The notes beneath the pieces are model-generated. The model saw only the letters and a program-made list of their open reading frames with translations. It was not told the origin of the DNA and searched no databases. The position numbers and the translations under genes were made by a program. Shown here one piece after another: positions 1,729 through 12,636 of a DNA stretch of 39,316 bases. The DNA is from a virus. The DNA lies in IMG/VR virus record IMGVR_UViG_3300029868_000026; one strand, written 5' to 3'. The stretch's first letter is position 1, and each line of letters starts with the position of its first letter.

Positions 1729-2630
1729 AGCCCTAACACCTCTTTTAAAAACGTCAATTCACCCGCATCAGCCACCACTAACACCGCCGCACATAAATTG
1801 TTTTCATGGCCGCCTGTTTCCGTTGTTCTAAGTAGGTTGGCTATGCTGGAAAGTGGGCGCGCTGATACAAACGCAGCATGGCCGGTATCACCAGAAAATG
1901 AGGATAGCAACGCATCACTAATCGTTTTGCTGTCTTGTATGTGTTGCTGTTTTTTAGCAATCAATGTTTGTAATTCGCTTACCGGGTCGGTGTTTTCTGC
2001 ATCGTACCCCACCGCAATGGCCAACCGTTTGCCAACCACTGACAACACATTGTTGGTGGTGGATTGCTGCAATGTATTGGATAACACCCACCGGCTATTT
2101 TTTGCGGGTTGGGGTAATAGGATTTTTTCAGCGTCTAAATTAAATAGCTGTTTGGCGCGGCGTTGTACCATCTGAAATTCCGCCACGGGAAAGACCGCAT
2201 TGAATGCGGCCAATTGACTTTCAAAATTATCTAATGTTGATGAATACACCATTATAGCAACGGCTTCTTTTTCGCCACCTGGCAAACTCGCATCATTGGC
2301 ATCAACCAATTTATCCGCCAATGCATTCACCGCATTTTGTGGAGACAAATTCCGAAACACCCCACCACCTTGCCCGACATCGGCAACCCACGGATGCACC
2401 GCAACCACATGAGTATTAGCATTAATAGCATCAACCAATTGCGCCCAACTTGAACCGACACCGGAAACATCAGAGGCAACCGTATTGGCAACAAAATTAT
2501 GGGATACCGAAACCAACCGGCCATTGGCGTTTGTCAATTCACCGCCTGCATTGGCAAGCATGATATCAACATCATTGGCCGCATCGGTTGCGATACTTGG
2601 TGCGCTAAAATTTGTGGGTTGCCAATTCAT
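1725..2630 (-). CDS. Hypothetical protein downstream of the tail fibre gene
   Basis: 301-aa ORF, co-oriented with the late operon and coupled to the next gene. No recognisable motif. Confidence 0.6.
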   Translation of the reverse strand: MNWQPTNFSAPSIATDAANDVDIMLANAGGELTNANGRLVSVSHNFVANTVASDVSGVGSSWAQLVDAINANTHVVAVHPWVADVGQGGGVFRNLSPQNAVNALADKLVDANDASLPGGEKEAVAIMVYSSTLDNFESQLAAFNAVFPVAEFQMVQRRAKQLFNLDAEKILLPQPAKNSRWVLSNTLQQSTTNNVLSVVGKRLAIAVGYDAENTDPVSELQTLIAKKQQHIQDSKTISDALLSSFSGDTGHAAFVSARPLSSIANLLRTTETGGHENNLCAAVLVVADAGELTFLKEVLGL

Positions 2631-2719
2631 ATTAATATCCCAACGGTTCGGCGGTTTTAATGGCAGTTAAAATAGAATGAAGATTCATTTTAGTAACGCG
2701 AATATCAAAGGCCATTTTC

Positions 2720-4753
2720 TTATGCATTTTCTAAAGCTTCTATTCTGCTAATAAGGCCATCGATTACATTATCACGTTCCAATATCATGCCGTTTAATTC
2801 CTGTACCGATTTTATAAGTGGGCCAATGAATTCCTCATAACCTATACTCTTAAAATCCGCACCACCACCAATAGAATGATCCTGATACCCAGCGAAATCT
2901 ATATTCAGTTTATCCATCAAAGCTTTGATTTCATCTGCAATTACACCCTGATGAAAACGGTTTCGCTTCTTGCTACCATCTCGCGGTATCAGTGTGACAA
3001 CTTGTTTTCCATCATCGTCTTCAGTGACCTGTACATAGTCCTCGCGGTAATCCAAACGATATTCGACTGGGCGAACTTCCAAAAGGAAACTTAATCCTAA
3101 AGTGGTATCAATTATGTCTGCTTTATCTCGTACATCAGAACGGTTTTGTACGGCACCATAGGCAAAAGTAGTGGAGTTAGAATTGCCTAATTGCACCTGA
3201 TTATCCGCAGTGACGTTACAGTAATCACCGAGACACGTAGCACTATCAAAAGCACCAGAACTAAATCCAGCACCTACGCCAAGATTAATACTACGAATAC
3301 CAGAACCAGAACCACCAGCATGAGCGCCTATGTTCACCGCGTCTTCAGAAGTACCAAAATCACCCGCGAACTCACCTATACAAACACTGCCGTGACCTTG
3401 ATTGTTTTGTCCCGCGTTTTGCCCTATCGCTATAGCAGTAGTTTCTTGCCCAGTGACTCCAGCATTCGGGCCTATAGCTATAGCGGCAAGTCCCTGACCA
3501 GCATTTCCCGCGAAACTACCAATACCTATGCTAAGAATCCCCGCGTCAGCATTGCCATTGGCACCATCACCAATATGAACTTCAGCACCTGTTAACGATG
3601 CGATTATGTTATTAGCGGTAGTTTGTGCCGTTACCGCTTTACCATCTGCGGTGTTAGCCGCAGTTTGTGCCGTTACCGCTTTACCATCTGCGGTATTAGC
3701 CGCAGTTTGTGCCGTTACCGCTTTACCATCTGCGGTATTAGCCGCAGTTTGTGCCGTTACTGCTTTACCATCTGCGGTATTAGCCGCAGTTTGTGCCGTT
3801 ACCGCTTTTCCATCTGCGGTATTAGCCGCAGCTTGTGCCGTTACCGCTTTACCATCTGCGGTATTAGCCGCAGTTTGTGCGGCAACGGTTTCATTAATCA
3901 AATATTCAAAAACGGTGCCACCGATATTATGGGAGGTGCGCTCATCGGTAACCACACCGCCACCATCGATGCTGGCAACCTTAACCAAATAATGTTGGCG
4001 GTTGTTGCTGTCGATATAGTCGCTTTGCACCGCTGCATCATAAACCATAGAAACCACATCATTAACGCCGCCAGCGTGGCCCAACAAATGCACATCCAAC
4101 CAAACATCGGTTGGCAATGCGCCGGGGGTTATGGTGTGGGTTGTGTCGTTTTCAACTCTTAAACCTTTGACATAACCAACACCGGCTAACAGGGTAAAAA
4201 CACTGGCGTTATTTTCAACTAAAAACCCATCATCTAAAAATGCATCATCACCATAAAAATCATTAGCCACGGCGTTGGCGCGTTCGTCTTGTCCATCAAA
4301 GCGCCCCATAAAATCCATTTGCCAGGCTTCCGCCGCCACGGTTATTTGTGTTGTTGCTTGCGCATCCACATAAGCCGTGACAAAGTTTTTTGCAATCGTA
4401 TCACCCGCGACATTGCCAACGGTTTTTGTTTTTTGGATAACTTCACTATAACTAACACCCACCAACGTGTTGTCTTCTGCCTGAATACCAACCCAATTGA
4501 ATTGAAAATCTCCATCATCTGGCCCTAACACCAAAGAATAGACCACTTGATCAGGGTTTATATATCCTTGACTAGTCACCGCCCCTTCAAAAACAATATC
4601 CCCGGCATCGGGTATCACTTCCAACAAATCCACCGGGGTGGTTGGGTCTAGTCCGTCGATGTAAGCCAAAATAAATCTATCCACCACAAAAGGTTCCGAC
4701 AACCCTTGTTTTTGCGCAATTAGCGCGCGTCCCGCCGTTAATACTTGTGACAT
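2720..4753 (-). CDS. Tail fibre with YadA-like Gly-rich repeats and a C-terminal peptidase S74 intramolecular chaperone domain
   Basis: The N-terminus (MSQVLTAGRALIAQKQG...) resembles P2/HP1-type fibre N-termini. There are six TAANTADGKAVTAQ repeats and AIAIGxNAG-type repeats. The last 139 aa (SDVRDKADI...GVIADEI...IGYEEFIGPLIKSVQEL...IEALE) match the S74 chaperone-of-endosialidase pattern. Confidence 0.9.
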   Translation of the reverse strand: MSQVLTAGRALIAQKQGLSEPFVVDRFILAYIDGLDPTTPVDLLEVIPDAGDIVFEGAVTSQGYINPDQVVYSLVLGPDDGDFQFNWVGIQAEDNTLVGVSYSEVIQKTKTVGNVAGDTIAKNFVTAYVDAQATTQITVAAEAWQMDFMGRFDGQDERANAVANDFYGDDAFLDDGFLVENNASVFTLLAGVGYVKGLRVENDTTHTITPGALPTDVWLDVHLLGHAGGVNDVVSMVYDAAVQSDYIDSNNRQHYLVKVASIDGGGVVTDERTSHNIGGTVFEYLINETVAAQTAANTADGKAVTAQAAANTADGKAVTAQTAANTADGKAVTAQTAANTADGKAVTAQTAANTADGKAVTAQTAANTADGKAVTAQTTANNIIASLTGAEVHIGDGANGNADAGILSIGIGSFAGNAGQGLAAIAIGPNAGVTGQETTAIAIGQNAGQNNQGHGSVCIGEFAGDFGTSEDAVNIGAHAGGSGSGIRSINLGVGAGFSSGAFDSATCLGDYCNVTADNQVQLGNSNSTTFAYGAVQNRSDVRDKADIIDTTLGLSFLLEVRPVEYRLDYREDYVQVTEDDDGKQVVTLIPRDGSKKRNRFHQGVIADEIKALMDKLNIDFAGYQDHSIGGGADFKSIGYEEFIGPLIKSVQELNGMILERDNVIDGLISRIEALENA
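2723..3139 (-). other. S74 intramolecular chaperone / autoproteolytic domain portion of the tail fibre
   Basis: The domain starts at the conserved S-D-x-R-x-K motif (Ser codon at 3139-3137). Confidence 0.8.
3621..3872 (-). repeat. 6 x 42-bp in-frame tandem repeat inside the tail fibre gene
   Basis: The unit gtttgtgccgttaccgctttaccatctgcggt(g/a)ttagccgca is repeated head to tail and encodes TAANTADGKAVTAQ. Confidence 0.95.
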
Positions 4754-4767
4754 AATATTTTATCCTT

Positions 4768-5289
4768 TTAAAATTGAGCAATATCGGTGGAGTATCGACA
4801 ATGAGAACTACCACAACCAATTCCAACTTGTGAGAAATCGTTTGTGGTTATCTCATAACGGCGGCATGTTCGACCATACTTTGTCATTAACAACCGTATC
4901 AATTCAGGGTTTTGTGATAGCTGGTTGTCATCCATATTTATCACGATAACATCCCAATCTTTGCCGGGTGCGCGTTCTTGAATTTGTATGAAACCGATAC
5001 CCAACCGTATAAAAATCTTTTTAATGCCAGCAATAGAACCGGAATCAACAGAATTGATAAAGGCATGTTTTACACGTAATCGATAAAGCGCCAAATCTTC
5101 ACCATCAAAACGTTCTATATTGCGCTGATATGCTAATAAATCCAAAATGCCTTCAACGCACGTTTCAGCATCCATTTGGGTTAATGGCCAGGATAACCAA
5201 CCGGCTATGGTATCCCAATAACTTTGCCCGGCTGCGCGCAATTTTTCGATTTCTACTTTTGCCAACCATGCTGGTAATGTTAATTTCAT
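4768..5289 (-). CDS. I: Baseplate wedge protein, P2 gpI-like
   Basis: LLAYQRNIERFDGEDLALYRLRVKHAF...GSIAGIKKIFIRLGI follows the gpI pattern (LLPWLAWAFSVDRW...KGT.GA....LG). It sits directly after the J-like gene. Confidence 0.75.
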   Translation of the reverse strand: MKLTLPAWLAKVEIEKLRAAGQSYWDTIAGWLSWPLTQMDAETCVEGILDLLAYQRNIERFDGEDLALYRLRVKHAFINSVDSGSIAGIKKIFIRLGIGFIQIQERAPGKDWDVIVINMDDNQLSQNPELIRLLMTKYGRTCRRYEITTNDFSQVGIGCGSSHCRYSTDIAQF

Positions 5290-6467
5290 AACATATTCAC
5301 CGTTAAAGTATCGATTCTTGGCAATTCTAAATTACTAACAATATCAACCTGGATAAAATCAACAGAATACAAATCTGAAAATTGCTTGTGTAATTCACAA
5401 CCCAGCTTGCTAAATGAGAATTGCGACAATGGGAAAGTTAGGGTTGGTGAATAACCTACGTTTTCCCTAAATGCGCACCGAATAAAATTAATCACATCAT
5501 TTTCAAGGTCGGTTTTTTTTGCGTCCGTTAAATTTTTCTGAGGCCAAACATCTACCGTTAATACGTGTAAACTTTCAGGCATGGCAAACAACACTAAATC
5601 ATCGCCATGGCCGTGGTTTCCATTGTCGGTTATTTCTGCCTGTATGTTGGCAATAAATTGGGCGTCCGGTGTACCTATATCCAACATAATAAAGCCGTTT
5701 GCAGTACCAGGGCCGCGTGGGGCATTATGTTCAAAAAATACGTTGCGAGCTTTCACACCATCAAAGCTTGAAATTATCGCAGTATAAACCGCGTCCGTAT
5801 GCCATTGGCCAACCGCTCCAAATTGATTTTGTACCCGTTCGCGCAAATCATCATCCAATTCAACATCGGCACCAGGAACCAACAACCAATCGGCTAAATT
5901 GGTAACCGATGACACCCCCGGCACTGCGGTGGGTAAAATTGAATAATACCCCGCCGCCAAATTGTAATTACTGTAATTACTACCCGTATCAATCGCATCA
6001 ACGGCAACCAATGCGGTGGTTTCACCGTCTAACATGGTTTTTTCCTCTGTTGTCACAACCTCATAGATAACGCCATTAATAGCCACGGTTTGCACTGTCA
6101 CACCCACGGGAATAATTAGCGTGCCGCTACCATCAAACCTAGTAAACTGTAATTTACCGCTTGCGGTTACTGCCTGCTTTCGTTCGATATCAACCGCCCA
6201 TGCCAGCAATTCCAAATAAACGCCGCTTGCGGTTTTAACGTAGGCATTAGGCAACACATGAGTTATCAACAAATCAATCATCCACAGCGCCGGGGCGGAA
6301 ATCAGCGCCGACACTAAACGCCAAAAGGGCGAATACTTAGAATCATTGTTTATGGCTGAACCTTGCGCGGCGGCCTCTTCATTCCACTTTGTTTTTAACC
6401 CATCTTGTGTAGTGGGTATCCCGGCATCTTCAATCATCGCGGTAAATTTTTCAGTTTCATCATTCAC
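5286..6467 (-). CDS. J: Baseplate wedge protein, gpJ / Baseplate_J-like
   Basis: 393-aa ORF between the W-like and I-like genes with 4-nt overlaps. Size and position fit the gpJ/gp47 family. Confidence 0.75.
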   Translation of the reverse strand: MNDETEKFTAMIEDAGIPTTQDGLKTKWNEEAAAQGSAINNDSKYSPFWRLVSALISAPALWMIDLLITHVLPNAYVKTASGVYLELLAWAVDIERKQAVTASGKLQFTRFDGSGTLIIPVGVTVQTVAINGVIYEVVTTEEKTMLDGETTALVAVDAIDTGSNYSNYNLAAGYYSILPTAVPGVSSVTNLADWLLVPGADVELDDDLRERVQNQFGAVGQWHTDAVYTAIISSFDGVKARNVFFEHNAPRGPGTANGFIMLDIGTPDAQFIANIQAEITDNGNHGHGDDLVLFAMPESLHVLTVDVWPQKNLTDAKKTDLENDVINFIRCAFRENVGYSPTLTFPLSQFSFSKLGCELHKQFSDLYSVDFIQVDIVSNLELPRIDTLTVNML

Positions 6468-6790
6468 AATAATAACTCCATCGCCCCAAATTCAATTGTT
6501 GTGGCTTTCAGATAATAAGTATCACCGACTTTTTCAATGTTCGCGGTGCCGGGCTTTATCCTTAAATCGTTTTCAATTTCAATTTCCATTCGATTAATAT
6601 TTATGTTTATTTTTGATATGCTTCGTTCACCAATTAACGCAACCAACAAACCGGTTTCACGAATCATGTGCTTTATATCTTGCGCTATCGTTGCGCGCCC
6701 TATGATGCTTTCAGGCACGTTGACGGCATCCAATACCACATCATCATCTACCACCAACAAATCTAAATAATTTTGCAATTCATTCGACAT
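6464..6790 (-). CDS. W: Possible nested/independent gpW (gp25-like) baseplate wedge protein, 108 aa, in frame with the giant ORF
   Basis: Internal ATG at 6790-6788 is preceded by ggggaagaaaaaa (RBS-like). The sequence ...SIIGRATIAQDIKHMIRETGLLVALIGERS... resembles the W/gp25 core. It sits immediately upstream of J, as in the P2 V-W-J-I order. Confidence 0.5.
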   Translation of the reverse strand: MSNELQNYLDLLVVDDDVVLDAVNVPESIIGRATIAQDIKHMIRETGLLVALIGERSISKINININRMEIEIENDLRIKPGTANIEKVGDTYYLKATTIEFGAMELLL

Positions 6791-9700
6791 TTTTTTCTTC
6801 CCCGGTTGGTACACCGATAATTTTTTAATAGGTTTAGAGGTAGGGGGGGTATATTTCCAAATTTCACGTGATGGAGAAACAGCAGTAAATAGGTTTAATT
6901 CCGCAACAAACACGCCGCCATCGCTTGAATCCGTGGCAAGCATAAATGTTCTTGATAAAGGTAAACTTAAAATTTCACCTACTGTTTCACGATTGTATTC
7001 AAACAATCTTGCGGAAGTATATTCTTGATCAGATGGATCATATACAACACCGTAAATATATTTTGTTAATGCATTAATTGTAATTGATACAACCGTTACG
7101 ATTGAAGAATCACCAAAAACATTCCCTAGATTTACCCATAGACCACTAGCAAGAACATAGTGCCAAAGCTCTTGCTGTTGTGTTTGCTGATTAGCATCAA
7201 CAAAATACAAATCCCCATTTATTTCATCAACCGTTCCCAATGTAAATAATACAAGTGGAAAAGGAGTATCGGAATACATCGGTATTTCAATGGGATTACT
7301 TCCATCATTTTCAACGGTAAATAATTTGAATTCGGATGTCTGAGTATTAATAGCAACAATCCACAAAAACCCTTTCGCATCACATTGATATATTTCATAA
7401 ACAAGATAACCCCCCAAGAATGTATCATCTATAACATCCCAGGTAGAAAAATCATCAGTGGAAACAACAAGCGAACTTGTATTAGTCCCACCATTAATGA
7501 TATTTCCCCACACTTGCCCCGTGATTTCATTCACAGCTACAGAGGCGGCGGCTATACCATTTGTATTTACCATGCCTTGGCTAACTAACTGTTGCGCTAT
7601 GTTCTCATAAACCCCACTTACAACATTCAGTTTTCCAATTGTCGAACTGTCTCCACTAACAACGTATAATCCAACATACAAATTCTTTGTGATGCTGTTA
7701 AAATCCATGCTATAGGGGCCAACTGTCGATTCTTCGGTTATCATCTCACCCTGAAAAGACCAAACGCCACCTTCTACTATGTCTACTACTACTCTTTCTA
7801 CTACGGAAAAATGCCAAATTTCATTTCCAATTTGTCCCGAACTATCCGCCAGTGTAGTAATCACTACTTCATAAGGCCCGCCCACGGGAATAAATTCCGG
7901 TAACGCACTGACATCAACAATGATATCTATCGAACCATCCCTAGAATCCATCGCGTCAGGTATCAAAGCATAAGCTTTTGATTCAACTTCACTACGTTCT
8001 ACACCACTAGAATCTTGCTCGATGACAAACGTGTAATCATTCGGTAAATTTATAACCGGTGGATAATCTATCCGAGCAGGGGCGGTAAACTCTTCAAATT
8101 GTATGATGGGGTTTTCATCTTTAAGCCCCATATAATAATAAAACCGGTAAACGGTATCATCCCATTCATAAGGCAAATATTGTGTGTGTATACTTCCATA
8201 GGGTAGCCCATTTCCTTCTATAACTTTAAAACTTACCGGACTACCCCAACCATGATAAACCTGTTCATCAGTGGGAATATTATCCGCACGATAAATAAAG
8301 GTATGCAAATCTCCTTCGCCATTTGCACTTATACCAACCGCAATGCTTGATTCAGTTATATTATGTAAATTAACGGATGTTATTTCCGGTGCATCATAAG
8401 TAGTTTGTACGAGTTGATAAACCCATTCATCACCCGTAACATTATCAACCAATACAAAATATACATCATAGGCTGTATTATTTTGCAGCCCTTCTAAACG
8501 TACCCCCGCAAGTGAACCGTTGCTAATAGCTGAAAAAAATGATGTGGCGGGGGCTGCCCCACCACTTGCGGTTCTAGCTAATATTTCTGGAATTGTTGGC
8601 GTAGGATCACCCGCTGGAACAACCACCGTTGTCCAACTAGCATCAATATCTACATCAACCCATAAAGAAAATTGATACCTACCTAGTGTATCTATAAATG
8701 GGTAACCGTCAGCAAAAACGGGAATGGAAGAAACCACCGGCACCGAACCAACAAGAGAAATCATCCCCGTTGGAATATTTACGGATTTATTACCCGGTGC
8801 ATCTACAGTAAGAACTTCACCGGTTAACGCGATTGAACCAGTAGGCACATCAACGGATTTATCATCCGTTGTATTTACAGTAAGAACTTCACCGGTTAAC
8901 GCGATTAATCCAGTAGGCAATTCAACTGCTTTTTCATTCGTTGTATTTACAGTAAGAACTTCACCGCTTAACGCAATTGAACCAGTAGGCACTTCAACTG
9001 CTTTATCATCCGTGGTATCTACAGTAAGAACTTCACCCGTTAACGCTATGGAACCGCTTGGCACATCAACGGATTTATCATCCGTTGCATCTACAGTAAG
9101 AACTTCACCGCTTAACGCGATTAATCCAGTAGGCACATCAACGGCTTTATCATTCGTTGCATCTACAGCAAGAACTTCACCGCTTAACGCGATTGAACCA
9201 GCAGGCACATCAACGGCTTTATCATCTGTTGTATCTACAGTGAGAACTTCACCGCTTAACGCGATGGAACCAGTAGGCACTTCAACGGCTTTATCATCCG
9301 TTGTATCTACAGTAAGAACTTCACCGCTTAACGCGATTAATCCAGTAGGCACATCAACGGCTTTATCATCCGTTGCACCTACAGTAAGAACTTCACCGCT
9401 TAACGCGATTGAACCAGTAGGCACATCAACGGCTTTATCATCCGTTGCACCTACAGTAAGAACTTCACCGCTTAACGCGATTGAACCAGTAGGCACTTCA
9501 ACGGCTTTATCATCCGCTGTATTTACAGTAAGAACTTCACCCGTTAACGCGATGGAACCGCTAGGCACTTCAACGGCTTTATCATCCGTTGCATCTACTG
9601 TAAGAACTTCACCGGTTAAGGTAATGACACCGACTGGTATTGAAACTTCTTTATTATCAGTGACGGTAATGCTTGGCACTTGCCCTGTGAGGGTAATCGA

Positions 9701-9847
9701 GCCATCTGGTATGGATACGTCCACATCTGTAGTAACGCCACCACTATCAACAGTAGCCTGGTAGATGATGCCACCAACATTTACCGTGCGCTCGTCCGAC
9801 TCTTCGTATATCTGGCCGTTGGGCAGTATTACCAGGCGATTAGCCAT
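6464..9847 (-). CDS. Giant 1127-aa protein: N-terminal 24-aa repeat array, FN3/Ig-like and propeller-like regions, and a C-terminal gpW/gp25-like baseplate wedge domain
   Basis: Single uninterrupted ORF. Its start codon abuts the upstream stop (9847/9848) and its end overlaps the J start by 4 nt. Confidence 0.75.
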   Translation of the reverse strand: MANRLVILPNGQIYEESDERTVNVGGIIYQATVDSGGVTTDVDVSIPDGSITLTGQVPSITVTDNKEVSIPVGVITLTGEVLTVDATDDKAVEVPSGSIALTGEVLTVNTADDKAVEVPTGSIALSGEVLTVGATDDKAVDVPTGSIALSGEVLTVGATDDKAVDVPTGLIALSGEVLTVDTTDDKAVEVPTGSIALSGEVLTVDTTDDKAVDVPAGSIALSGEVLAVDATNDKAVDVPTGLIALSGEVLTVDATDDKSVDVPSGSIALTGEVLTVDTTDDKAVEVPTGSIALSGEVLTVNTTNEKAVELPTGLIALTGEVLTVNTTDDKSVDVPTGSIALTGEVLTVDAPGNKSVNIPTGMISLVGSVPVVSSIPVFADGYPFIDTLGRYQFSLWVDVDIDASWTTVVVPAGDPTPTIPEILARTASGGAAPATSFFSAISNGSLAGVRLEGLQNNTAYDVYFVLVDNVTGDEWVYQLVQTTYDAPEITSVNLHNITESSIAVGISANGEGDLHTFIYRADNIPTDEQVYHGWGSPVSFKVIEGNGLPYGSIHTQYLPYEWDDTVYRFYYYMGLKDENPIIQFEEFTAPARIDYPPVINLPNDYTFVIEQDSSGVERSEVESKAYALIPDAMDSRDGSIDIIVDVSALPEFIPVGGPYEVVITTLADSSGQIGNEIWHFSVVERVVVDIVEGGVWSFQGEMITEESTVGPYSMDFNSITKNLYVGLYVVSGDSSTIGKLNVVSGVYENIAQQLVSQGMVNTNGIAAASVAVNEITGQVWGNIINGGTNTSSLVVSTDDFSTWDVIDDTFLGGYLVYEIYQCDAKGFLWIVAINTQTSEFKLFTVENDGSNPIEIPMYSDTPFPLVLFTLGTVDEINGDLYFVDANQQTQQQELWHYVLASGLWVNLGNVFGDSSIVTVVSITINALTKYIYGVVYDPSDQEYTSARLFEYNRETVGEILSLPLSRTFMLATDSSDGGVFVAELNLFTAVSPSREIWKYTPPTSKPIKKLSVYQPGKKKMSNELQNYLDLLVVDDDVVLDAVNVPESIIGRATIAQDIKHMIRETGLLVALIGERSISKINININRMEIEIENDLRIKPGTANIEKVGDTYYLKATTIEFGAMELLL
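8717..9724 (-). repeat. About 14 x 72-bp in-frame tandem repeat (24-aa unit K-A-V-[DE]-V-P-T-G-S-I-A-L-[ST]-G-E-V-L-T-V-[DN]-[TA]-T-D-D)
   Basis: The periodicity is directly visible in the translated ORF (residues about 42-377) and in the DNA. Units 3-13 are highly similar; the end units are degenerate. Confidence 0.95.
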
Positions 9848-11230
9848 TTACGCCACCAGTGAGATAGTCGGGCAGTAATTTACGGTTACAGACGGCTTAG
9901 TAATATATGCGGTAATATCTGGTATGCCGTCCGACCCCACATCTACTGAAGTATCAATGTCGACGTAGTACTCATTGTACCCGGTAAGGTCTGCCGCGCC
10001 GTTTTTCCACGTCGAGCCGGTGTCCGCCGTTAACTCTGTTCCGCCCGTCAAAAAATTACTATTTCTAGTACTCAGAAAATTAGATACGTTTCGGGTCGTT
10101 CCGTCGGGATACGTCAACGTGAAGTAAATATCTGAGCCTGTTAGGGTGTCGGTTGATGCCAGGTGAATCCGCAGTATTCCAGTAGTGGTTAGCGTTGCTC
10201 GAAGCGTTGGAAAATCAAACCAAAAAGGGTTAATGACTGAACATAGCGCAGACGTTATGCACTCTAGGCTTGTTTTTGTTCCAGAGTTAAACGGTGTGGA
10301 ATCGTTTCTGTGTACGCCCGAATCGTCTTGATCCATAACAGTACATCCGTTCGATATTACTGTAAATTGGTACTCTGAGTGCGCCGCATTATCCGAACTA
10401 CCAGTAATAACCATGCGCTTATCTGCGGCAGGTAACAGGTTGTCCGTGAAGATAACACCGCTTTTTAGGGCGCAATTCTTTATGCGCATGTCAAGCCCGT
10501 GGTAGCTGTGAGTATCGTTGTAGAGGATTTTGTCAGCATGCGTTAAGTCCACGCCGGTAAAATGCGCCCTCCCGCCCCCACCGCCAAACCCATACCCAAA
10601 AATCCCGTTAATCGACCCGCCCACCGAGTTATAGACTCTGCCACCTGTCATACACAGTGTGGCTCCGCCCTGCACGTTAAGACGCCCGCCAACGTCCTGT
10701 ATGTCTATGTCACTATTAATTAGTTTTAGGATGCACCCGTCTTTAGATGCCAAGCTCATTATGTCGGAATTTCCCGTAAGGATTAGCGTGCATAGTTCGG
10801 CTACTATCGCACTGTTTGTTGTGCCAGAGTTAAAGTTGTCCTTTGGCTGTAGCGTCAAGCCGAACAAGAACAAATCTCCGCGCAGGTAGTAACTCGCGTT
10901 ACTATCACCGCTTAAAATTATCTCAGACGCGCCGGGGCTAGGTGTGTCCGCATTAGAACTGCTAACAGAAATTATAGCCCTTGGGCTGCCCCCGCTTTCC
11001 TCACCATAATACGTTATGCTGCCGCTATCGGTCTTAACATAAGCGTGAGTGTCTGCCAACAATATAATATCGCCCGCCGCGTATGGCGTAGATGGTATGC
11101 TGTAAACGTCTTCTATTTTATTGTAATACGCACTGGCACCCATCGCAGCAAAAGAACCCGTTCTAAGCGTTGTAGAACGCCCCGCGTCTAAGGCCGCCGT
11201 TCCACCTAATAGCACATAAAAAAAATTCAT
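9848..11230 (-). CDS. Hypothetical protein, possibly a beta-helix (tailspike/depolymerase-like) structural protein
   Basis: 460-aa ORF with repetitive short strand-turn segments (LILTGNSDIM, LINSDIDIQDVGG, LCMTGGRVYN, GGGGGRAHFTGVDL, IKNCALKSGVIF). Tightly packed in the tail operon. Confidence 0.6.
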   Translation of the reverse strand: MNFFYVLLGGTAALDAGRSTTLRTGSFAAMGASAYYNKIEDVYSIPSTPYAAGDIILLADTHAYVKTDSGSITYYGEESGGSPRAIISVSSSNADTPSPGASEIILSGDSNASYYLRGDLFLFGLTLQPKDNFNSGTTNSAIVAELCTLILTGNSDIMSLASKDGCILKLINSDIDIQDVGGRLNVQGGATLCMTGGRVYNSVGGSINGIFGYGFGGGGGRAHFTGVDLTHADKILYNDTHSYHGLDMRIKNCALKSGVIFTDNLLPAADKRMVITGSSDNAAHSEYQFTVISNGCTVMDQDDSGVHRNDSTPFNSGTKTSLECITSALCSVINPFWFDFPTLRATLTTTGILRIHLASTDTLTGSDIYFTLTYPDGTTRNVSNFLSTRNSNFLTGGTELTADTGSTWKNGAADLTGYNEYYVDIDTSVDVGSDGIPDITAYITKPSVTVNYCPTISLVA

Positions 11231-11703
11231 TACACAATCCCCACATATGCAGAAATCACCGCTGCATTCGTTTCAAGTTCTGCCCACTTGGCTTTTGCTG
11301 CGACCACGTCCTCAATTGAGCAATTAAGGGCAATTGCGTACTGTTCATCAGTAAGCCCCATAGACAACAAAGTAGGGCCGATGTCTTTCATCTTCTCATA
11401 AGCCTCATAAGGCTCTACAGAGTCGAAACCCTCTTTTACCCATGCATACTGTACCTGTGCTTGTGTGGCTTCTTTGTGCGCCGATTGTATCCCTAAGCTA
11501 ACCGCCTCTTTTGCGTCCAGGTCTTGGACGCTAGACAGCACATCAGCCTCCAATTCGATTAACTTTGTGTCGGCATCTTCTGGCGTTGGGACAAACAGCG
11601 CACGTTGAAACTTTCGCCCATCATCTAGCACAAACAAAAACCGCGCTCGATAGCGCCCAGAATGGGGTTTCATACTAAGAACGCTTTTATTCGCTACTGG
11701 CAT
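11230..11703 (-). CDS. Hypothetical protein
   Basis: 157-aa ORF abutting or overlapping both neighbours. Confidence 0.6.
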   Translation of the reverse strand: MPVANKSVLSMKPHSGRYRARFLFVLDDGRKFQRALFVPTPEDADTKLIELEADVLSSVQDLDAKEAVSLGIQSAHKEATQAQVQYAWVKEGFDSVEPYEAYEKMKDIGPTLLSMGLTDEQYAIALNCSIEDVVAAKAKWAELETNAAVISAYVGIV

Positions 11704-11985
11704 CTAAGACCCACCCTCTCTATCATTTTTCGATTCTTTCACTGCATTAGAACAATGGTGTTCATCCATAGCATGTAACCCTAAACAAAATATTCGGCAT
11801 AAATTACAATGATGTTTATTTCTACCGAATACTTCAGAAAGCGTTACACCCTTTTCTCCAAACTCATCATCTAAACGAAACAACCAGTTCAACTGCGGGC
11901 CGAATTTAAAGTTTACCCACTCATCAAACAAAACCAATTTCAACCAGGTACTATCTGAAATAAGGCTCCGTATGAATTTGAACAT
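11704..11985 (-). CDS. Small Cys/His-rich hypothetical protein
   Basis: 93-aa ORF with C-terminal HHCNLCRIFCLGLHAMDEHHC, a possible metal-binding cluster. Confidence 0.55.
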   Translation of the reverse strand: MFKFIRSLISDSTWLKLVLFDEWVNFKFGPQLNWLFRLDDEFGEKGVTLSEVFGRNKHHCNLCRIFCLGLHAMDEHHCSNAVKESKNDREGGS

Positions 11986-11987
11986 GA

Positions 11988-12194
11988 TTAGGTACCATCT
12001 AATGCAGTTTTAACTTCATCAATAGCACCTTGAACACCATCTAATTCCGCTTGCAAACGTGCGGTGGTATCTTTGGTGGTGGTTGATTTTGCAATTGAAT
12101 ATTTAAGCCGTTTTGCACGCTGAATTAAACGCACGATATCGGCGGCGGGTTTGGTGCCGGTTGGGGTTATTGTAAAACCTTTATTTTTAGCCAT
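11988..12194 (-). CDS. Small basic/coiled-coil hypothetical protein
   Basis: 68-aa ORF located 2 nt upstream of the next gene. Confidence 0.5.
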   Translation of the reverse strand: MAKNKGFTITPTGTKPAADIVRLIQRAKRLKYSIAKSTTTKDTTARLQAELDGVQGAIDEVKTALDGT

Positions 12195-12207
12195 GGTTTT
12201 TATTCTC

Positions 12208-12636
12208 CTAAGATTCTACAAAAACGCCGTTCGCGTTCATGTTGAGGGTGAGTGTGTTGGTGTCGGTAACGGTGACATCATCCGGTGTATCATCTAACAA
12301 AGCATGACAACACACCTCATCCGGTGTGGTGCTTGTGCAAACGATAGCGGCATAATGCCCAGTAATTGGACCACCCGCCGCATCAAATGCCGGGTCATTC
12401 ACATCAAACGTGACATCACCGCCCGAACGAGACCACGTTGGCGTTAGTGGTTGCGCTGCATAACCATTGCCTGATAGTTCATTGGTGGCGGTGGTGGCAT
12501 CACCCACGGAAGTGGTGGCGATATTTGATGCGACTGTATAAAGCCGCATTTCAAAAACGGAATTATCCATGTCAATGGTGTTATCGCCTTTAAATTCTTT
12601 GAACCTGTCGTGTGGTACCCAAGCTAATGCGCCCAT
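12208..12636 (-). CDS. Hypothetical protein immediately downstream of the tape measure
   Basis: 142-aa ORF in the late operon. Confidence 0.6.
   Translation of the reverse strand: MGALAWVPHDRFKEFKGDNTIDMDNSVFEMRLYTVASNIATTSVGDATTATNELSGNGYAAQPLTPTWSRSGGDVTFDVNDPAFDAAGGPITGHYAAIVCTSTTPDEVCCHALLDDTPDDVTVTDTNTLTLNMNANGVFVES

Follow-up and report, generated by a model that had tools for sequence, protein, structure and literature searches.

An in-frame fusion of a long repeat-bearing extension to the DUF2590 domain preceding J in a deep-subseafloor phage of the P2 family

Introduction

In this article, I will discuss an unusual open reading frame (ORF) on the minus strand of a phage genome from a deep-subseafloor sample, IMG/VR record IMGVR_UViG_3300029868_000026 (39,316 nucleotides, the whole stretch that was analysed and is called the window here), which is a complete, circularly permuted genome of the HP1/Canoevirus type within the P2 family (Peduoviridae). 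At positions 6464-9847 a single frame of 1127 codons joins an extension of about 1,000 amino acids (aa) to a DUF2590 domain, the protein called W below, which stands just before the baseplate gene J. The ORF is a genuine in-frame fusion in the DNA of the phage population and is unlikely to be an artefact, and there is, as far as the searches reach, no described counterpart of a gp25-position protein carrying a multi-domain arm of about 1000 aa. As to its meaning, I put at about even the chances that the loss of a stop codon fused an accessory gene to W, so that an adhesin-type protein would be tethered at the sheath-initiator position of each baseplate wedge, with free W probably still being made.

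An earlier reading of the nucleotide letters without database searches (the sequence-only reading) had described this ORF as ending in a gpW/gp25-like wedge domain and had offered two outcomes, a displayed appendage or two products from one frame. Reading the ORF again confirms one frame from an ATG start, and the two outcomes are not mutually exclusive. A correction concerns the setting: an accessory cassette of about 6 kb has been inserted between the tape measure gene and W, the extension being its last member, and in the two closest relatives such a cassette is accompanied by an unfused W.

The fused frame and its junction

The features on which the argument turns are the following.

6464-9847, minus strand: single 1127-codon ORF (accessory extension, linker and DUF2590 domain) with an ATG start; one 1127-aa gene call in L003, L004 and L005
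6467-6790, minus strand: DUF2590 domain, complete from its native start, recognised by Pfam PF10761, phrog_1237 and alignment to free-standing homologs
6790-6796, minus strand: homopolymer of seven A (A7), which ends in the first base of the internal ATG; length 7 in L003, L004, L005 and L093
6797-6803, minus strand: Shine-Dalgarno (SD)-like motif GGGGAAG, lying 6 nt before the internal ATG

North Pond is the source of the samples: crustal fluids were taken there from a shallow and a deep horizon of IODP Hole U1383C, and their DNA was read on the Illumina HiSeq platform (BioProject PRJNA280201; PMC4776111). The identical 1127-aa protein is called on three contigs (L003, L004 and L005), and on a fourth (L093), from a second BioSample, the frame is open for 986 codons into J, whose GTG start overlaps the TGA stop of the ORF at 6464-6466 (GTGA). 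Both the A7 and the open frame are thus common to four assemblies made by different pipelines from two samples, and the second-sample contig differs from the window by single-nucleotide polymorphisms (SNPs) elsewhere, with 17 mismatches in 3.75 kb. Split versions, whether a stand-alone 108-aa W or the upstream product expected with one A more or one A less, are absent from a collection of about 15 billion proteins. It is because A7 recurs in four assemblies from two Illumina samples, and because no split version is recorded, that I consider an artefact unlikely; the possibility of an indel at the A tract, raised by the sequence-only reading, was checked on public assemblies and the fusion survived. 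That the true genome holds two genes and that one A was simply lost in the consensus is hardly credible: homopolymers are classic indel sites, the tandem repeats within the ORF do break assemblies and the NCBI record taken up in the Discussion may differ, but the data are Illumina HiSeq, the four assemblies agree and the repeat problem lies about 2 kb away from the junction.

The junction itself is instructive. The in-frame ATG at 6790-6788 is codon 1020, and the GGGGAAG before it, which the sequence-only reading had already pointed out together with the A tract, pairs with the anti-SD (within the upstream 17 nt) at -5.7 kcal/mol, compared with a median of -5.0 for 28 real starts of this genome. 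Among the 12 in-frame internal Met codons this is the best SD (the runner-up reaches -3.2 kcal/mol), and the RNA around the internal start is less structured than in shuffled sequences (z +1.3). Initiation is therefore predicted at codon 1020, and free W is probably also produced, because the native SD and ATG of W are intact and unstructured. Adding one A to the tract brings a stop after 3 codons (...KKKNVE, then the TGA that lies inside ATGTCGAATGA) and an 11-nt gene overlap, and removing one A brings a stop after 8 codons, in agreement with the earlier observation that both alternative frames close within about 10. Either one-base change in A7 would split the ORF into two ordinary overlapping genes, and so, to judge from its letters, the junction looks exactly like two adjacent genes whose separation was lost by one base.

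A homopolymer at such a place also raises the thought of programmed recoding, in which frameshifting or transcriptional slippage on the A tract would set the ratio between the accessory protein alone (-1 frame, ending KKKNVE) and the accessory-W fusion, like the tail chaperone pair G/GT. The shifted frame does end after 3 codons, and A7 runs with Lys codons are slippage-prone; against this, the zero frame reads AAG AAA AAA ATG, which is not a canonical X XXY YYZ heptamer, no downstream stimulatory structure is seen (z -0.02 and -0.56), the site is not conserved and no relative has the fusion. Recoding in general is very improbable on this evidence, and a programmed -1 frameshift, lacking heptamer, stimulator and conservation, was rejected.

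The C-terminal domain

Residues 1028-1125 cover positions 1-99 of the 100 in the Pfam DUF2590 profile (PF10761) with a score of 105 bits, where 27 is the cut-off (E 2.5e-30), and phrog_1237 is matched by the same domain. Identity to free-standing DUF2590 proteins is 44-64%, and M1020 aligns with the native N-terminus of stand-alone members (MSNELQNYLDLL versus MSNIDLL and MSDYYDLL). In the cultured relatives Pseudomonas phage phi3 (gp28) and Vibrio phage 1.202.O (gp35), the DUF2590 gene encodes 106-115 aa and lies between the tape measure gene and J; J follows immediately downstream of the domain in the window as well, with a matching order in phi3 and Canoevirus. P2 carries gpW in the slot just before J.

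The suggestion of a gpW/gp25-like wedge domain is supported in part. The position before J and fold matches in a library of viral protein structures agree with it, but the family name does not: the ORF gives no match to Pfam GPW_gp25 (PF04965) at E <= 0.01, and by its profile matches the domain is to be filed under DUF2590, not GPW_gp25. An AlphaFold2 (AF2) model built from a 69-sequence alignment has a mean predicted local distance difference test (pLDDT) score of 94.7 and shows two long helices packed on a three-stranded sheet. Foldseek found no match for this model in the PDB at E <= 1e-3, the best template modelling (TM) score being 0.50, to a phiCD508 baseplate chain, and a profile search of PDB sequences placed two sheath initiators (E217 gp34-type) as its top chains at an E of only about 0.3. 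In BFVD, six matches lie below E 1e-3 with TM 0.6-0.79, and the weaker matches there bear the names baseplate wedge protein, DUF2634, Mu gp46, sheath initiation protein and Pvc entry. On synteny and moderate fold similarity taken together, I accept that the DUF2590 domain works like gpW/gp25, and the protein is then most likely the sheath initiator capping each baseplate wedge, in six copies per tail.

The same BFVD search drew attention to two uncharacterised proteins of uncultured phages, A0A6J7WX90 (514 aa) and A0A6J5NAE6 (1041 aa), each with a region matching the DUF2590 model (TM 0.70 and 0.56). By these model comparisons, they may be other large fusions with a gp25-type fold or sheath initiator.

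The state of the relatives

About 155 related loci were examined, namely 80 viral loci plus phi3, Canoevirus, L006 and L008, six metagenome loci and 65 loci in bacterial genomes. W is a separate gene in them, of 103-153 aa and in one case 265 aa; in all examined loci except L006/L015, L098/L009 and L008, it has 103-127 aa and follows directly after the tape measure gene. In an exhaustive HMMER search of 1.84 billion representatives, nearly all proteins with DUF2590 had 86-143 aa, and of those extended at the N-terminus the longest again had 265 aa. The expectation that a fusion would be unusual for this phage family is thereby strongly supported.

Real N-terminal additions to DUF2590 were found in three relatives only, with total lengths of 265 aa (L008), 139 aa (L006/L015) and 153 aa (L098/L009). 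The L008 protein, P0017, consists of a Pfam Bact_surface_Ig-like domain (3e-18), a Pro-rich linker and DUF2590, directly before J. To judge from these sequences, the DUF2590 N-terminus tolerates additions, none of them near 1019 aa. A number of longer DUF2590 ORFs in IMG/VR (L082, L051, L086, L029, L034, L037, L072 and L016) were considered as real fusions and rejected, because they are Arg/Pro-rich off-frame readings over the tape-measure 3' end in a high-GC Pseudomonas group, or frameshifted tape measures. In L082 (positions 1836-4457 of IMGVR_UViG_3300031372_000111), for instance, an 873-codon open frame (871-aa ORF from its ATG) runs from the tape measure through an off-frame stretch into DUF2590, an apparent frameshift, by error or mutation, that illustrates how spurious 'giant W' ORFs arise in high-GC relatives.

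The distance from tape measure to W in the window phage is about 6 kb, filled by an accessory cassette that includes the extension as its last gene. An insert of several kb at this place is otherwise seen only in L006/L015; L098/L009 has an accessory gene there, its contig being cut upstream. In L006 (positions 4955-8992), three genes fill the slot (480, 439 and 421 aa), and a gap of 8 nt separates the last of them from W. In L098 the slot holds a gene that is at least 321 aa long and has an FN3-type domain; its stop shares one base with the ATG of W. The cassettes of the window, L006 and L098 are unrelated in sequence except for one weak match between residues 593-684 of the ORF and the 421-aa gene of L006. 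The sister phage L006/L007/L015, from the same metagenome, has core tail genes 50-63% identical to those of the window and a wholly different cassette in the slot, and because a sister phage holds a completely different cassette at the same place, the slot between tape measure and W behaves like a hypervariable accessory locus.

A variant strain in the same samples, L094 (ERZ23497142 scaffold_3624; also NCBI MBL4755872, JKY52_20045), has about 84-93% nucleotide identity and shares the 157-aa gene, the 460-aa gene and the start of the big ORF, with the repeat region keeping frame. The ratios of nonsynonymous to synonymous polymorphism (pN/pS) against L094 are 0.12 for the 157-aa gene and 0.15 for the 460-aa gene, pointing to purifying selection. 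No L094 contig covering the W junction was found. For J, the closest relatives belong to Hahella and Pseudomonas prophages, and a metagenome-assembled genome (MAG) named 'Gammaproteobacteria bacterium' contains the sister phage. In NCBI, genes of the window phage (MBL4755860-MBL4755866, corresponding to window 9848-11230 and its neighbours) are held in a bin whose Flavobacteriales label is probably wrong, the host being probably a marine gammaproteobacterium.

Anatomy of the extension

From the N-terminus onwards, the part of the ORF ahead of the DUF2590 domain can be divided as follows.

9728-9847, minus strand: N-terminal 40 residues ahead of the repeats; the ATG adjoins the TAA of the upstream 460-aa gene
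8720-9727, minus strand: 14 tandem 24-aa repeats, residues 41-376, consensus DKAVDVPTGSIALSGEVLTVDATD; homologous repeat proteins found
8435-8719, minus strand: FN3-type domain, residues ~377-471, including LEGLQNNTAYDVYFVLVD; homologs carry Pfam fn3
8072-8434, minus strand: strand-rich uncharacterised stretch, residues 472-592; no homologs found
7796-8071, minus strand: candidate immunoglobulin (Ig)-like module, residues 593-684 (YPPVINLPND...FSVVE); weak match to an L006 gene
6851-7768, minus strand: orphan region with internal repeats of ~50 aa, residues 694-999, by Smith-Waterman self-alignment against shuffles
6791-6850, minus strand: Pro/Lys-rich linker, residues 1000-1019 (TPPTSKPIKKLSVYQPGKKK), read from the sequence; a comparable Pro-rich linker occurs in P0017

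The 14 tandem 24-aa repeats of the sequence-only reading stand, and at the DNA level they appear as a 72-bp array at 8781-9619 with 11.7 copies and 89% matches, at which several assemblies break. Their best PDB matches are designed leucine-rich repeat (LRR) proteins with 24-residue units, at an E of 1.5e-6, a score inflated by periodicity; the conserved Asn of LRRs is replaced by Asp in them, and neither whole-ORF nor segment-wise Pfam searches gave a match to an LRR family. They probably form a solenoid with one coil per repeat, to be read as 'solenoid-like' only. A 346-aa antisense ORF spans the repeats at 8724-9764 on the plus strand and is itself perfectly periodic; it is almost certainly a by-product of the repeat and no gene.

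The FN3-like stretches that had been noticed are supported in part, through homologs and not directly. Homologs of residues 375-471 repeat this domain up to 28 times in giant proteins and carry Pfam fn3 at 2.5e-13 and 1e-12, but residues 377-471 have no direct Pfam match in the segment-wise search, and their PDB sequence match to an FN3 domain of DCC (E 0.75) is non-significant. Residues 593-684 likewise have no Pfam match segment-wise; their resemblance to residues 227-315 of the 421-aa pre-W gene of L006 amounts to 24.7% identity with an E of 6e-4 in a small search, and is weak.

The region that had been taken for a possible beta-propeller is less clear, and a propeller is unproven. Smith-Waterman self-alignment of residues 694-999 gives a maximum of 60 compared with 33.6+-4.3 in shuffles, aligning 694-740 with 902-948; the offset of 208 residues is about 4 x 52 and compatible with units of ~52 aa, and a six-unit beta-repeat is possible on this periodicity. 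A BLAST self-comparison for propeller blades came back empty, and the single-sequence AF2 model of residues 376-1019 is unusable (pLDDT 31.8). Residues ~475-1019 had no homolog in an exhaustive phmmer search (query residues 374-1127) of the 1.84 billion representatives, the last 298 aa, used as a query against metagenomes, brought up no additional copy of the orphan region, a homolog search with the full-length ORF returned matches to the repeat region only, and segment-wise Pfam and PDB sequence searches of the extension gave nothing significant.

Genome setting

The gene set of the window comprises portal, terminase, scaffold, capsid, adaptor, sheath, tube, lysis genes, chaperone, tape measure, J, I, fibre and hub-type genes, and the neighbours of the ORF are placed as follows.

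2720-6467, minus strand: downstream baseplate/fibre block, with J at 5286-6467, I at 4768-5289 and the tail fibre gene at 2720-4753
9848-12636, minus strand: remainder of the accessory cassette between tape measure and W, with genes of 460, 157, 93, 68 and 142 aa
12671-14464, minus strand: tape measure protein, directly after which W is found in other relatives

Among the five upstream cassette genes, the 142-aa gene, matching phrog_644, has the sole family assignment, and NCBIfam and PDB sequence searches of the genes at 9848-12636 gave nothing significant. A terminator-like hairpin lies inside the fused ORF at 8544-8565 on the minus strand (9 bp with 7 G-C pairs, followed by ATCATTTTTT, about codons 428-437); in a scan of the ORF region for internal promoters and terminators, the matches, including the hairpin count, were at chance level. 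The tail-fibre gene (2720-4753, minus strand) has a tandem repeat of its own, a 42-bp unit at 3610-3880 in 6.5 copies with 95% identity that encodes the 14-aa unit TAANTADGKAVTAQ. A 100-N gap of the ENA scaffold (L003 14187-14284) falls exactly on this repeat, and for that reason the copy number of the fibre repeat is uncertain or assembly-variable.

Discussion

How far does this protein depart from what is known? The DUF2590 proteins of HP1-like Peduoviridae (phi3 gp28 and 1.202.O gp35) share with it the full-length domain and the slot before J, I and the fibre gene, but theirs are free-standing proteins of 103-127 aa directly after the tape measure, whereas here the domain is the tail of an 1127-aa protein. 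The gp25/gpW/TssE class (T4 gp25, P2 gpW, XM1 gp15 and E217 gp34) is alike in the slot upstream of a J-type wedge protein, in core size and in the modelled two helices and three strands, but known members are small and single-domain, and the domain of the window is without a GPW_gp25 match. P0017, from an uncultured relative, is the nearest concrete parallel, with its N-terminal Ig-type domain attached through a Pro-rich linker to DUF2590 before J, yet it has one 70-aa domain and keeps no internal Met at the boundary, compared with about 1000 aa and four module types in the window. In the sister phages L006/L015 and L098/L009, whose marine samples are the same or similar and whose core tail genes show 50-64% identity, large FN3/TIG-type proteins (of at least 321-480 aa) also lie between tape measure and W, but the last cassette gene stops at or before W, which has an N-terminal extension of only 31-64 aa. 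The nearest known concept is the grafting of adhesion modules onto conserved phage structural proteins: Ig-like and FN3 decorations, added in frame or by frameshift, lend them weak surface binding (PMC5009743), and the Dit/Tal proteins of siphophages likewise carry inserted carbohydrate-binding modules (PMC9128512, PMC7291167). The difference from these grafts is that the carrier here would be an inner baseplate sheath initiator and that the graft is N-terminal and ten times the size of its carrier.

The reading to which I give even chances would run as follows. Two formerly adjacent genes, the last gene of the lineage-specific cassette of about 6 kb and the DUF2590 gene, would have been joined when a one-base change in the junction A tract removed the stop in a recent event, the reconstructed ancestor reading ...AAA AAA AAT GTC GAA TGA and overlapping the ATG of W. 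The upstream partner would be of adhesin type, with a 14-coil solenoid of 24-aa units, an FN3 domain, an Ig-like module and about six beta repeats of ~50 aa. Translation from the 5' start would give a protein of ~120 kDa whose C-terminal W domain would assemble into the wedge; on its Pro/Lys linker, the appendage could then stand out from the baseplate and serve as an accessory arm for binding the cell surface, probably glycans. From the intact SD and ATG free W would be made too, so that baseplates might carry a mix of plain and arm-bearing sheath initiators. The N-terminal additions to DUF2590 in L006, L098 and L008 speak for this proposal, as do the large FN3/TIG-type genes that abut a separate W in L006 and L098 and the purifying selection on the cassette (its 157- and 460-aa genes); as a general precedent, Ig-like modules are known to settle beside or within phage structural genes, whether or not they keep the reading frame (PMC5009743).

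Several points weigh against it, and the most serious is structural. In solved myophage baseplates the sheath initiator lies between the inner ring and the first sheath ring (PMC13250141; PMC10457771), and because of this position the display of an arm of ~110 kDa needs a linker that threads outward; by analogy, a 1019-aa N-terminal load on a buried sheath initiator may be hard to accommodate, and outward display of the arm is, on the same comparison, the weakest step proposed. The ORF, its recurrence in the assemblies, the identities of its domains, its rarity and the state of the relatives are shown by the data; the origin by stop loss, the incorporation into virions, the role in adhesion and the internal initiation are inferred. 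The model of residues 376-1019 is, as said, unusable. The junction bears all the marks of an ordinary gene overlap (native start, SD, homopolymer and a close stop in the shifted frame), and the fusion is unique among the ~155 loci and the 1.84 billion representatives, where a recent and possibly non-adaptive indel would look alike. There is also the NCBI record, a 9,185-bp contig from the MAG labelled Flavobacteriales, in which the 460-aa gene is MBL4755861 (JKY52_19985) and J is MBL4755864 (JKY52_20000), a numbering of accessions and locus tags that seems to leave room for two coding sequences (CDSs; JKY52_19990 and JKY52_19995) in place of the single ORF of the window. The cause could be a split allele, or else a scaffold gap within the 72-bp array; for such a gap the ENA scaffold, with its 100-N gap in the fibre-gene repeat, provides a precedent.

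The main rival is an incidental fusion, in which the locus would remain two genes in function, joined when an A8 recently lost one base, with W made from its own ribosome-binding site and ATG and the full-length product a tolerated by-product that is no regular component of the virion; occasional slippage on the A run may even restore the native end of the accessory protein. Codon 1020, with its native start, its strong SD and the unstructured RNA around it, would suit such a locus, as would a homopolymer exactly at the junction, a +A frame that gives a textbook 11-nt gene overlap, the separate W of all relatives, the restriction of the fusion to near-identical sequences from one site and an NCBI record that may hold two CDSs. 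Yet the fused allele was assembled in both samples, including the contig with SNPs, so that at least most of the population carries it and it is not strongly deleterious; domains are found added to the N-terminus of DUF2590 in nature, and a fused product is not implausible; and the split product is recorded nowhere in the collection of ~15 billion proteins. An incidental fusion is, in my estimate, possible but rather unlikely.

The tethered adhesin-type arm also has a bolder form, in which the sheath initiator would be the carrier of the primary receptor-binding arm, with all or most of the six W armed, so that binding would be mechanically coupled to the protein that holds the first sheath ring and would bypass fibre-to-wedge signalling, the A7 and the nested start tuning the ratio of armed to plain copies. 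I regard this form as distinctly improbable.

What, then, might such a gene teach us? If it is an incidental stop loss rescued by internal initiation, it is an example of nested starts buffering indels and nothing more. The fusion may also be read as a 'Rosetta stone', suggesting that the hard-to-annotate accessory genes in the slot between tape measure and W of these deep-sea phages encode baseplate-associated structural proteins. Few parts of contractile injection machines are as small and as conserved as the gp25-class sheath initiators, which are treated as purely internal assembly factors. If the arm of the window phage is displayed, the N-terminus of a sheath initiator can reach the exterior of the baseplate and anchor host-recognition modules there, and this would bear on how receptor binding is wired to contraction and on the engineering of phage tails, pyocins and extracellular contractile injection systems (eCIS) with new targeting domains.

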